DNA of 39,607 nt from Hadesarchaea archaeon (GTDB taxonomy: Archaea; Hadarchaeota; Hadarchaeia; Hadarchaeales; WYZ-LMO6). Below the pieces are notes generated by a model, which was not told where the DNA came from, searched no databases, and saw only the letters and a program-made list of their open reading frames with translations. Made by a program: the position numbers and the translations under genes. The first letter of the stretch is position 1, and every line of letters begins with the position of its first letter. Below are positions 3,909 through 36,577 of the stretch, piece after piece. The DNA is taken from positions 1 through 39,607 of the forward strand of contig JAPDJF010000017.1 of NCBI GenBank assembly GCA_029259185.1, written 5' to 3'.

Positions 3909-4448
3909 ATGTTGAAGCTTCTGGGAGTCTTTCTGTCCACTTGGGTGTTCAGTCCGGTGGGGGGAACGGCCTATGCGGTAGCTCAAGGTTTTTCCTCGAT
4001 TCAAACGGTTGCCCTCATCGCAGCGATGAATGCGATAATCGTGGTACTGTGGTTCGGAATAGTAGGATTTTTCGCTCGGAGACTCGAGCGGGTCTTGATG
4101 CGAAGAAGGACAGTGCACGTGCCAATCGTTAAGCGAAGAAAGGTGGGACACCTAACGATAGCAGAAGTGGGTTTTATAGCTTTTGTAGCGGGGTCGGTTT
4201 GGGCCGTGATAATAACGTACATGACGAACGTGAATAAGCTGGTGGCTTGGGCCGTGATAACTCCTTGTACGGTGGGGAGTGGATTGCTTTGGACATTGGG
4301 TTCGCTTGGGGTGATCCCCTTTCTTCCATCCCCTTGGTGGCTTTATCTGATGGCGGTGGGCGCTACGGCCTTGTCGGTAGGGAGTAGGGTATATCGGAAT
4401 TTCGATAAAATCCGAGAAGTTATTAGAAAGATCCGTGAGAAATCTTGA
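3909..4448 (+). CDS. Hypothetical integral membrane protein (about 4-5 TM segments)
   Basis: Multiple hydrophobic segments with basic loops; directly downstream of the peptidase; family not recognised. Confidence 0.6.
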   Translation: MLKLLGVFLSTWVFSPVGGTAYAVAQGFSSIQTVALIAAMNAIIVVLWFGIVGFFARRLERVLMRRRTVHVPIVKRRKVGHLTIAEVGFIAFVAGSVWAVIITYMTNVNKLVAWAVITPCTVGSGLLWTLGSLGVIPFLPSPWWLYLMAVGATALSVGSRVYRNFDKIREVIRKIREKS

Positions 4449-7886: not shown

Positions 7887-9010
7887 TATTTCCTCTCCAA
7901 GTAATTGTGGACGAAAACGGGAAGCTCCTGAATCTCCACTTTTGAGTTAAGCCTCTCGTTCACGAGTTTCAAGTGGAGGTAACAAAAGGGACATGAGGTT
8001 ATTATCGTAGACACGCCTTTTTCTTGAGCTTCCCTGATCAGAAGTTCCCCCACCTTTTCTGAGATCTGAGGTGAAAAGAGCCTTATGGTCGGGGCCCCAC
8101 AGCATAAGGCGTTAGCTCGATTCTCCTTGAATTCTATTAGCTCCGCCCCCATATACTTCAGGATTTCTCTCGGCTCTCGATAAATTCCACATCTCCTTCC
8201 TAAATGACAAGGATCTTTAAATACGACTTTTTTCCCCTTACATTCGTCCGTGAAGTTCAACTTTCCATCCATGATCAATCTGTGAATCGTTTGGGAGATG
8301 TGTTCGACCTCAAATTTGGGTTCTCGATATATGGAGGGGTAGATTGTGGAATATACATCGTAGCAAGAAGAGCAGGAGAAGATAACAGACTTCGCTCCGG
8401 TTCTTTCTATACTTTCAATGTTTTTCTTGGCAAGCTTTGCGATTTCTTCGTTTTTTCCAAATTGGAAGAAGTTCAATCCGCAACAGTTTTCTTTTTCCCC
8501 GAGCACATCGATCCGGAGTTCGGCTTGATTGAGTACCCGGACTACATCCTTTGCGATGTCTCTGAGTCGGTACGCTACGATGCATCCGGTGAGATAGACG
8601 GTTTCCGCTCCTGGAGTCAACTCGGTGGATCCATCGATCCACTTCAACCTCTCATGAGGGGGCTCTCTCAGGACCGAGCCGAGATTGGACATGTTTTCGA
8701 ACACATGTCGTATCCGTTTTGGTGTGGCTCCAAGGGTGTCTAGGCGTGCTCTCAAGTATTTTATCAATTCGGTTACTTTCACATGGGCTGGGCACTCCAA
8801 CTCACATGCCATGCAGAGGGTGCAGGCGTACGCTGTCTCCCTCTCGGACTTGGATAATTCCTCCCCCCTCAGCAGTTTTTCCGTTGATTTTATCCTTCCC
8901 AGAGGAGAAAAGGATTCGTTCTCACTCCCTAAGTATCCCGGACATACTCTTTTGCAGTTTTCACATCGGTTGCATTTTTCGATCTCTCTCCAGATGCTCT
9001 CAGCTTCCAT
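7883..9010 (-). CDS. (Fe-S)-binding oxidoreductase, GlcF/HdrD-like with CCG domains
   Basis: Two CxxCxxCxxxCP motifs; ENCCG, CSSC, DPCHLGR, ALCCG, SCPFC. Confidence 0.88.
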   Translation of the reverse strand: MEAESIWREIEKCNRCENCKRVCPGYLGSENESFSPLGRIKSTEKLLRGEELSKSERETAYACTLCMACELECPAHVKVTELIKYLRARLDTLGATPKRIRHVFENMSNLGSVLREPPHERLKWIDGSTELTPGAETVYLTGCIVAYRLRDIAKDVVRVLNQAELRIDVLGEKENCCGLNFFQFGKNEEIAKLAKKNIESIERTGAKSVIFSCSSCYDVYSTIYPSIYREPKFEVEHISQTIHRLIMDGKLNFTDECKGKKVVFKDPCHLGRRCGIYREPREILKYMGAELIEFKENRANALCCGAPTIRLFSPQISEKVGELLIREAQEKGVSTIITSCPFCYLHLKLVNERLNSKVEIQELPVFVHNYLERKY

Positions 9011-18547: not shown

Positions 18548-18628
18548 CTTTTTTAGGTCGAGTTTGGAAAGTTAGCCACTTCCGAGAGCGGATAAGAATT
18601 TATGAGAGTTGTTGGAATACTAACTAAT

Positions 18629-18645
18629 GCCGGGGAGTGCCGGGG
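18629..18645 (+). repeat. Tandem copy of the tRNA-Asn 5' acceptor strand in the leader (GCCGGGG twice)
   Basis: GCCGGGG at 18629-18635 and 18639-18645; leader GCCGGGGAG is complementary to CTCCCCGGC at 18779-18787. Confidence 0.85.
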
Positions 18646-18791
18646 TGCTGCCAGCAGCCCGATAGCTCAGTAGGTAGAGCGCTCGGCTGTTAAACCCGGC
18701 ATGGATGAAGAGCGAGCCTCAAAGGGTTGAAACGACATGGCCGGGTACCGCAACCGAGCGGTCAGAGGTTCGAGTCCTCTCCCCGGCGCCA
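18639..18791 (+). tRNA. tRNA-Asn(GTT) with two introns: 17 nt at 8/9 (18647-18663) and 60 nt at 37/38 (18693-18752)
   Basis: Removing both gives GCCGGGG-TA-GCTC-AGTAGGTA-GAGC-G-CTCGG-CTGTTAA-CCGAG-CGGTC-AGAGG-TTCGAGT-CCTCT-CCCCGGC-G-CCA; BHB at intron 1. Confidence 0.9.
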
Positions 18792-20830: not shown

Positions 20831-20914
20831 ATTTGACCCGTTTCATTTTGGAGGCCGAGGATTTAATTTCGCCGGCGTCGAAATGCATTATAATCTGATC
20901 GGTATAAAGGAATT

Positions 20915-20926
20915 GGGCCCGGGCCC
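20915..20926 (+). repeat. Tandem copy of the tRNA-Ile2 5' acceptor strand in the leader (GGGCCC twice)
   Basis: GGGCCC at 20915-20920 immediately before G1 (20921); TTATAAT box at 20888-20894 places the likely TSS near 20915. Confidence 0.75.
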
Positions 20927-21055
20927 GTAAGTGGCCAAGCCACCGGGAAGCTCAGCCAGGTTAGAGCGCCCGACAACGTTAGTTGGGCGAAGCTCATAGG
21001 TGAAAGAGCCTGGGAGACCGGGTGGTCGGGCGTTCGAATCGCCCCGGGCCCACCA
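20921..21055 (+). tRNA. tRNA-Ile2(CAT) with three introns: 9/10 (20930-20949), 30/31 (20973-20991) and 37/38 (20999-21016)
   Basis: Spliced form GGGCCCG-TA-GCTC-AGCCAGGTTA-GAGC-G-CCCGG-CTCATAA-CCGGG-TGGTC-GGGCG-TTCGAAT-CGCCC-CGGGCCC-A-CCA; G1G2G3C4 acceptor favours Ile2 over Met; strict BHBs at introns 1 and 2. Confidence 0.9.
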
Positions 21056-35230: not shown

Positions 35231-36544
35231 CTAGATTTCTCTACTCTCGTGCGCGACATGGACTTCACGTACTAGGGGTTTAGCCAAATGTCTGCGACAT
35301 CTAGGAGGAACTTCGAAAATACGTAGAAGTATCTTTCGGGGGAGGCGGATGGTCTCCGCTTTTCCCTCGGGCGCGTTTATCTTACATTTTTTACACGAGT
35401 ATCCCTTCCCTTTTCCCTCGGACTTCATCCGTCTCCCACACCGGGGGCACGTTGGATTCCTTTTTTCTACTAGAGGGACGAGTTTCAGAATAGAAATTTT
35501 CTCTAGATTAACGGTCAGGGGTAAATTCGGTTTTTCTTTTACCCCACCAAAAACTCTGACTTTGTCCCCGATTACTAAGCTTCGAGCGATTTCTCTAAAT
35601 TTTCGGGTTGGCTCATAAGCCGCACAGTCGATCTCCCCACTTCCGTTTTTCACGCTGAATATCACGTGCCCCCCCGGTATCGTCCTCGGGGCGCGACAGA
35701 CGGTTCCATCAACGATTACGGATCGGTAAGGTTTAACTTCAGAGATCTTCTTCAGTCTGAGATAATGTTCGTCTGTTCCTTGATTAGTCTTATAGGTTAT
35801 CATGAAATCTACTGGTTCTAGTGTCCTTACTAATTTGCTCGCTTTCTCCACAGCTTCGGGGGTCTCTCCGCGGATTCCGTACAGGATGGGACAAGGTGTG
35901 TGGGGTGTGATCCTTATCTCTCCGGTAAGTGGATCCAAGTTGTCAAACGTTTCAGGATAGGTTTCGGCGTTCATCCGGAAGACGGATTCAGCATCGATTT
36001 TTCGAGGGGTTCCCCAGTTTTCACGTATCCGGTAAGCAATGAGTTCAAAGGTCCAATCCCGATCGAGTGGGTGCCCGATAGCAGCCAACGCACCTATGAC
36101 ACCGTTGCCGAGTTTAAACTTGTGGATTTCTGCTTCCACCTCCTTGGCTAACTCTTCAGCCTCCTTCAGATCTACGACTTCTTGGACAGTTTTCTTGCTG
36201 AAAGTTTTCAGGCACTTTGGGATATCTTCAGACTCGTAAAAAACTACTCCAGGATTCGTGGTTTCGGACCGTAGCTCCGCTAGCTCTCGAACGGTATCCA
36301 AGACGATTCTCTTCACGATGGGGATTCTCTGTCTTGATATCCTTACTTTCATGGCCACAGCACAGTTACCTCTCGTTTTGTGGGGCCACATCGGGTTAAG
36401 GCGTATGAGTTTTGGGAACCCCTCTAGTCTTCCTCCAATTTCTCGTATTCTCCGGATGATTACGGCTCCAACGTATGTGGTACACATCCCCTTTTTCGAA
36501 TCAGTGTCATCGATTCCGATGTTGAGTATAACCAAGGATACCAT
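35231..36544 (-). CDS. tiaS: tRNA(Ile2) 2-agmatinylcytidine synthetase
   Basis: IGIDDTDS..GMCTTY, LIRLNP..P.KTRGN, G.GVIGALAA, PHTPCPILYGIRG, TNQGTD.H, GGHV, AAYEPT, C..CG..M.S.G, RRHLAKP; start ATG 36544 is uncertain. Confidence 0.93.
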   Translation of the reverse strand: MVSLVILNIGIDDTDSKKGMCTTYVGAVIIRRIREIGGRLEGFPKLIRLNPMWPHKTRGNCAVAMKVRISRQRIPIVKRIVLDTVRELAELRSETTNPGVVFYESEDIPKCLKTFSKKTVQEVVDLKEAEELAKEVEAEIHKFKLGNGVIGALAAIGHPLDRDWTFELIAYRIRENWGTPRKIDAESVFRMNAETYPETFDNLDPLTGEIRITPHTPCPILYGIRGETPEAVEKASKLVRTLEPVDFMITYKTNQGTDEHYLRLKKISEVKPYRSVIVDGTVCRAPRTIPGGHVIFSVKNGSGEIDCAAYEPTRKFREIARSLVIGDKVRVFGGVKEKPNLPLTVNLEKISILKLVPLVEKRNPTCPRCGRRMKSEGKGKGYSCKKCKINAPEGKAETIRLPRKILLRIFEVPPRCRRHLAKPLVREVHVAHESREI

Positions 36545-36577
36545 AAAAACTAGGGGATTCATAAATATTTGGAATAG

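Follow-up and report, generated by a model that had tools for sequence, protein, structure and literature searches.

Within the window, by which we mean the whole analysed stretch of 39,607 nucleotides, positions 20921-21055 of the plus strand hold a tRNA(CAU) gene with three BHB introns, at positions 9/10, 30/31 and 37/38, and a short leader element lies directly upstream. The same window carries a tRNA-Asn(GUU) gene and a gene encoding TiaS. The features are as follows.

18628-18788, plus strand: tRNA-Asn(GUU) gene with a leader copy, 5' end at 18639
20914-20920, plus strand: 5' leader element UGGGCCC, which repeats the acceptor 5' strand and can form 7 bp with 21046-21052
20921-20929, plus strand: exon 1, comprising G1-G7 (acceptor 5' strand), U8 and A9
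20930-20949, plus strand: intron 1 (20 nt) at position 9/10, a strict hBHBh' of three outer, four central and five inner pairs
20950-20972, plus strand: exon 2, from G10 to G30 (D-arm, G26 and the first four anticodon-stem bases)
20973-20991, plus strand: intron 2, 19 nt, position 30/31, strict hBHBh'
20992-20998, plus strand: exon 3, from G31 to A37, with the anticodon CAU at 20995-20997
20999-21016, plus strand: intron 3 (18 nt) at the canonical 37/38 site, hBH type
21017-21055, plus strand: exon 4, from A38 to A73, plus an encoded CCA (21053-21055)
35231-36562, minus strand: TiaS, which modifies C34 of tRNA-Ile2 (Pfam TiaS_FLD, 149 bits)

The BHB enumerator returned intron 1 as strict hBHBh', with flanking helices of three pairs on the outer (exon) side and five on the inner (intron) side. 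In the outer helix, G1G2G3 (20921-23) pair with C11U12C13 (20951-53), including one G-U pair, and in the central helix C4C5C6G7 (20924-27) pair with CGGG (20944-47), all four pairs being Watson-Crick. The bulges U8-A9-A (20928-30) and A-A-G10 (20948-50) have three nucleotides each and lie on opposite strands, and the inner helix GUGGC/GCCAC (20931-35 with 20939-43) is closed by the loop CAA. This geometry fits the BHB definition in the available text of a preprint on Asgard archaea (bioRxiv 10.64898/2026.10.13.758758). The first-pass annotation had described a BHB at 20921-20953, and sequence and enumerator agree with that description to the base. Excision of 20930-20949 joins A9 to G10. A one-base shift of the boundary (A9|A...A|G10 or U8|AA...A|AG10) leaves the product identical, but introns of orthologues that start with U permit no such slide and thus fix the boundary at 9/10. 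A cut after the second base of each bulge gives 37/38 for the canonical intron and 9/10 for intron 1, and the recovery of 37/38 from the same geometry serves as a check on the cutting rule.

Introns 2 and 3 come in addition to the single intron noticed at first. Intron 2 is built from the outer helix GAG/CUC, the central helix CGCC/GGCG and the inner helix CAAC/GUUG, and an intron at the 30/31 place is present in most Ile2 orthologues. Intron 3 has seven outer pairs once intron 2 has been removed, and one inner pair. When all three introns were cut out in silico, ARAGORN returned a perfect cloverleaf of 78 nt, CCA included, with the anticodon CAT; the unspliced gene on the window DNA was called neither by ARAGORN nor by Rfam. 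Two other parses were dropped: a single-intron parse of the partly spliced gene by ARAGORN (Pro, GGG), which has stem mismatches, and a 5' end placed at 20915, with an 'intron' of 26 nt, which lacks U8 and scores lower. Introns 1 and 2 also resemble each other at their 3' ends (20944-20954 and 20985-20996), where both end in GAA followed by GCUCA, and their outer helices use the same 3' exon word CUC, as is likewise the case in tRNA-Lys(CUU).

The shape of intron 1 is by itself unexceptional. With an outer helix of at least 3 pairs, an inner helix of at least 5, an intron of 12-60 nt and G-U pairs allowed, 42 BHB motifs of equal strictness were counted over the two strands of the window, compared with a range of 18-46 over ten first-order Markov simulations, so that BHB shape alone occurs here at chance frequency. 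The local fold of the 33 nt around intron 1 is equally unremarkable (z = -0.97; 32 of 200 shuffles fold equally well). As both measures lie at chance level, motif count and local fold energy were dropped as support for the intron. What stands above chance is the context, namely the restored cloverleaf, the precise presence or absence of the insert in orthologues, and covariation.

Thirty loci were retrieved from 40 relatives and the genome itself; in four of them the best match was a different tRNA, and the other 26 contain this CAU gene (25 orthologues and our own). The 9/10 intron is found in six of the 26 Ile2 genes (our own and five of the relatives') and is absent from 20 of the relatives' 25 orthologues, counts that come from related, non-independent genomes and therefore overstate the number of events. 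In the five relatives an insert of 20-24 nt sits at the same 9/10 point. In the 20 intron-free orthologues, among them those of all five sister-genus genomes, GGGCCCGUA is followed directly by GCUCAG; the junction A9-G10, which according to the first-pass annotation would be restored by removing the 20 nt, is thus the one found in these genes and in the cloverleaf made in silico. A search of 65 genomes of the order with the 9/10 pattern gave 15 matches in 14 genomes, and the reversed pattern gave none in the same 65. Across these 15 Hadarchaeales introns (14 distinct), three of the five inner-helix pairs have changed in both partners, and 97% of the cells remain paired. None of 500 shuffles matched the observed covariation score or the paired-cell percentage, and sliding the inner-helix partners by 1-3 columns left at most 54% of the cells paired. 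The outer and central helices are invariant in this alignment because the search pattern fixes them, and they are uninformative.

These comparisons bear on the possibility that the locus is a tRNA pseudogene in decay, with a 20-nt insertion that is not spliced out, or that the BHB is a chance hairpin. The chance frequency of BHB-like motifs of this strictness and the silence of the standard tRNA finders speak for such a reading. It is nevertheless extremely improbable, given that the Ile2 exons yield a perfect cloverleaf, that intron-free orthologues differ by exactly the 20-nt insert, that other genomes retain an intron at this position with compensatory changes, and that the genome, which is 95% complete and encodes TiaS, offers no second Ile2 candidate. 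Taken together, the evidence is best read as originally proposed, as a BHB intron at 9/10 of tRNA-Ile2, and the sequence comparisons indicate that intron 1 is very likely a real spliced intron. The identity of the tRNA calls for separate arguments, since Met and Ile2 cannot be told apart by the CAU anticodon alone and the spliced product is labelled Met by ARAGORN; on that reading the intron would be real, and the gene an elongator tRNA-Met. The acceptor strand GGGCCCG and A73, however, are identical to those of the tRNA-Ile(GAU) of the same genome and are shared by three Aenigmatarchaeota tRNAs with the unambiguous Ile anticodon UAU, and a separate CAU gene in the genome has a typical elongator-Met frame, with the acceptor GCCGGGG. 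Moreover, the window encodes TiaS, for which no substrate candidate other than this tRNA was found. This makes an elongator tRNA-Met improbable. Archaeal initiator tRNAs have A1:U72, and the G1:C72 of this gene argues against an initiator; a regular-expression search of the genome for an initiator tRNA returned only noise and the known Met gene, the set of CAU genes being incomplete.

We therefore assign the gene, with good confidence, to tRNA-Ile2. TiaS converts C34 of tRNA-Ile2 to agmatidine. The protein encoded in the window is full length, with four TiaS domains, and its NCBIfam match (E 2e-154) covers positions 2-414 of the 422-position profile at 514 bits, below the curated threshold of 600. 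As the gene is the only tRNA-Ile2 candidate and is missed by standard finders, automated annotation would leave the AUA codons of this genome without a decoder.

The closest counterpart of the gene within the genome lies on another contig.

43721-43849 of contig C3, minus strand: tRNA-Lys(CUU) gene with introns at 9/10 (21 nt), 30/31 (22 nt) and 37/38 (12 nt)

This gene, which neither Rfam nor ARAGORN called, has the leader GGGCCC, as in Ile2. Its 9/10 intron differs from that of Ile2 by one compensated inner pair (GUAGC/GCUAC vs GUGGC/GCCAC), the loop and the last base, and by its sequence the Ile2 intron is clearly related to it. In the sister genus, four of five genomes have the 9/10 intron in Lys and not in Ile2, and in the other large family it interrupts Ile2 in nine of 46 genomes; the nearest intron to that of the window is the Ile2 intron of one relative (G035), with 17 of 20 bases identical. 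A pattern search for intron-free tRNA-Lys orthologues gave no match in the 65 genomes. Old inheritance with losses, or copying between genes with identical flanks, would both fit this distribution, and 20 bases cannot decide between them.

The tRNA-Asn gene of the window has a 17-nt intron at 8/9 (18647-18663, strict BHB) and a second intron of about 60 nt in the anticodon loop, and the Rfam match to it begins only at position 8. The first-pass annotation had regarded its 8/9 intron and the 9/10 intron of Ile2 as unrelated and as independent gains in the same region. The two sequences are indeed dissimilar save for their shared design, but independent gain is not demonstrable from 17-20 nt; nor is the Ile2 intron an orphan, as it has a clear relative at the same position in the tRNA-Lys(CUU) of its own genome. 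Common to the Asn and Ile2 genes is the leader device described below.

To learn about the spread of the 9/10 site, one genome per prokaryotic species was scanned, which gave 118 pattern matches in 117 loci. A tRNA context, defined as a T-arm and a matching 3' acceptor strand downstream, was present in 66 of the 118 matches. According to our own solver, applied after removal of the 9/10 insert, the anticodons of these 66 cases are CAT (30), CTT (13), TTT (13), CCT (4) and TAT (3), with three badly solved. By label, 40 of the loci belong to Bathyarchaeia, 12 to Hadarchaeota/Hadesarchaea, five to Micrarchaeota, three to Aenigmatarchaeota and three to Nitrososphaeria, and the remaining ones are one Geothermarchaeota, one Hecatella and one contig in a bacterium-labelled bin. 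The 66 interrupted tRNA genes thus span at least five archaeal phyla. The 52 matches outside a tRNA context, mainly from GC-rich bacteria, form a natural control: the inner helix reaches 3 bp in 54 of the 66 tRNA cases against seven of the 52 others, and at least two of these seven are archaeal tRNA genes that fail the T-arm test. Introns recur at the 9/10 site of tRNAs with the 5' frame GGGCCCGUA/GCUCAG (Ile2, Lys, Arg and Ile-UAU). At this site the exon provides the outer helix and half of the central helix, and this contribution of half of the BHB helps to explain where introns can persist.

Two individual cases in this collection deserve mention. The contig in the bacterium-labelled (Acidoferrum) bin, 5 kb long, carries an archaeal three-intron tRNA(CAU) (L037) that is almost identical to that of a Bathyarchaeota genome (L086), so that contamination of the bin is probable. 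In one Bathyarchaeota genome, three tRNA genes, with the anticodons CAU, UUU and CUU, are interrupted at 9/10 (L095, L144 and L145).

The leader of the Ile2 gene, UGGGCCC, can form 7 bp with the 3' acceptor strand and A73, and its presence goes together with that of the intron. Among the Ile2 orthologues a leader helix of 6-8 bp is found in all six genes with the 9/10 intron, and the helix is at most 5 bp long in all 20 genes without it. The tRNA-Asn gene has the leader copy UGCCGGGG at 18628-18635. A strict Asn pattern was found in 3 of 65 genomes, and a DNA search was used instead; after 10 of the 32 Asn loci had been left out because they did not fit the expression, and one more as a duplicate place, 21 parsed loci remained. 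In the parsed loci the leader helix has 7-8 bp in 12/12 genes with the 8/9 intron and 2-5 bp in 9/9 genes without it, and all 12 intron-bearing leaders contain a (U/C)GCCGGGG copy or a G-U variant of it. As the acceptor sequence of Asn differs from that of Ile2, tRNA-Asn provides an independent replicate of the leader association. In the genome itself, where 36 tRNA genes were scored, a leader helix of 7 bp or more is confined to Asn (8 bp) and Ile2 (7 bp).

Across phyla, a leader helix of at least 6 bp was found in 49 of the 66 genes with a 9/10 intron, compared with 13 of 66 for a reversed target, one of 64 for 15 nt downstream, and three of 66 for 15 nt far upstream (46-60 nt upstream). By group, the helix is present in 12 of 12 genes of Hadarchaeota and in 35 of 40 of Bathyarchaeia. 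Its absence from 17 of the 66 genes, including all those of Micrarchaeota (0/5), Aenigmatarchaeota (0/3) and Nitrososphaeria (0/3), means that it is not obligatory.

Folding calculations were performed with and without the leader. In the minimum-energy fold without it, the acceptor stem is formed and the BHB is not. With the leader, the BHB together with the helix between leader and 3' strand came to -66.7 kcal/mol, vs -64.3 kcal/mol with the acceptor stem forced; the unconstrained optimum at 37 °C, -73.6 kcal/mol, corresponds to neither clean conformer. When only the BHB was forced in the folding program, the leader paired with the 3' strand on its own.

We propose the following course of processing, from the cleavage steps and their order to the part played by the leader, as an inference from sequence. 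The window at 20921-21055 would encode the tRNA-Ile2(CAU) precursor of this Hadarchaeota (Hadesarchaea) archaeon, with three BHB introns. For the recognition of intron 1, tRNA bases 1-7 and 11-13 would pair among themselves and with the intron's 3' end, and because this BHB occupies G1-G7, it would exclude the acceptor stem. The leader UGGGCCC would stand in on the 3' acceptor strand, and the true 5' strand would stay in the BHB until the intron is removed. EndA would presumably cleave each bulge between its second and third nucleotides, and RtcB would ligate A9 to G10. After splicing, the real acceptor stem could form, and RNase P would take off the leader.

A part of the leader in folding is, of the claims made here, one on which we remain guarded. 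The intron may be real and the leader repeat without any folding role, being either a by-product of the origin of the intron, for example by local duplication, or a part of the promoter or initiator. The position of the leader copy, which adjoins the tRNA 5' end or sits a few bases from it, is what a duplication would be expected to leave, and the 17 intron-bearing genes that lack the helix include all the DPANN and Nitrososphaeria cases. On the other hand, the association recurs, in Hadarchaeota and in Bathyarchaeia, in two tRNA families with unrelated acceptors (GGGCCCG and GCCGGGG), and variant leaders keep the pairing through G-U (GGGUCC, GGGCUC and GCUGGGG). In our own reading of the output, the Lys leaders pair in another register that includes G73. 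Finally, intron and exon are complementary in sequence rather than copies of each other, and simple duplication does not yield an intron. We consider a leader without a folding role rather unlikely and lean, with modest confidence, towards a leader that acts as a surrogate acceptor strand and keeps the splicing signal folded. The broader proposal, that in Hadarchaeota and Bathyarchaeia introns at 8/9 and 9/10 are tolerated only with a leader surrogate strand, so that intron and leader would be one co-evolving device gained and lost together, has in our judgement an even chance of being correct. If true, it would constitute a precursor-specific folding switch, which the accessible part of the searchable literature does not describe for tRNA splicing. 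Leader coupling offers a testable answer to the question of how a BHB that consumes the acceptor strand competes with a very stable acceptor stem.

The genome encodes components for such processing. Its single EndA gene (contig C15, 1252-1785 of locus L152) encodes an alpha4-like protein of 177 aa that aligned end to end with the chain of the M. jannaschii homotetramer (1a79, E 1.9e-38), and the strict BHB of introns 1 and 2 suggests that relaxed EndA specificity should not be needed. The RtcB ligase is also encoded in the genome; its Pfam match (contig C5, 18449-21118) is split into profile positions 1-52 and 49-426, about 1.3 kb apart within one frame of 941 aa, which suggests that the gene carries an intein.

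A home-made census of tRNA genes, anchored on an intact T-arm, gave an incomplete inventory in which several genes were missed or under-spliced. Further interrupted genes were noticed in the genome. In tRNA-Ala(GGC), on contig C24 at about 8000-8101 (minus strand), an apparent 27-nt intron lies in the 3' acceptor strand (at about 67/68), with HBh' geometry and an 8-bp inner helix, and Rfam matches only positions 6-65. The tRNA-His(GUG) gene, on contig C25 from 6128 (plus strand), has a 22-nt T-loop intron of hBH type after raw position 58. On contig C37 at 4131-4201 (minus strand) lies the 3' part of a tRNA-Phe(GAA)-like gene for which the 60 nt upstream contain no 5' acceptor strand that matches; it may belong to a split gene or to one with heavy interruption.

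Non-canonical BHB introns of archaeal tRNA genes have reportedly been described by Marck and Grosjean in 2003 and by Sugahara et al. in 2007 and 2008. Intron 1 is an additional case of these known BHB introns, in a lineage known for tRNA gene disruption. In its accessible text, the review of Yoshihisa 2014 (PMC4090602) lists the intron positions 20/21, 22/23, 25/26, 29/30, 30/31, 45/46, 53/54, 56/57, 59/60 'etc.', and gives 3/4 as an extreme position. The introns described here share with those covered there the hBHBh' geometry, the occurrence of up to three introns per gene and the presumed removal by EndA and a ligase, and the positions of the 30/31 and 37/38 introns of Ile2 are among those listed for known archaeal BHB introns (PMC4090602). 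Unlike in that part of the review, the lineage here is Hadarchaeota and not Thermoproteales. Position 9/10 is not named in the available text of PMC4090602, PMC4033280, PMC8450103, PMC3218864, PMC5829648, PMC2237900, PMC12397907 or bioRxiv 10.64898/2026.10.13.758758, and the primary catalogues may list it.

Hadesarchaea are rich in disrupted tRNA genes and have an alpha4-type EndA with an L3 loop, according to the accessible text of Kaneta et al. 2018 (PMC5829648). Our genome belongs to the same lineage and likewise has one EndA, of 177 aa, but the accessible main text of that study gives no intron positions and nothing on leaders. The D-arm introns of Asgard archaea are, as far as the available text of the preprint goes, missed by tRNAscan-SE, have canonical BHB boundaries and were gained repeatedly (bioRxiv 10.64898/2026.10.13.758758). 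Like these, intron 1 lies on the 5' side, is overlooked by standard callers and has canonical BHB boundaries; the preprint, however, concerns a different phylum, and its available text summarises acceptor-stem and junction cases only as 'other' and does not contain the word 'leader'.

The 9/10 site is common in uncultured archaea, and it is the leader coupling that may be new: in the accessible text of the same eight papers on tRNA introns (PMC4090602 to bioRxiv 10.64898/2026.10.13.758758), pairing of a leader with the acceptor 3' strand is not described. The nearest parallel is provided by the split tRNA genes of Nanoarchaeum equitans, in which, according to the accessible text of PMC4090602 and PMC3218864, leader and trailer pair to build the BHB. 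As in our proposal, sequence outside the mature tRNA pairs there during BHB-dependent processing. In N. equitans, however, the extra sequences form the BHB itself and join two transcripts, whereas the leader described here would pair with the 3' acceptor strand and serve the removal of an intron in cis.
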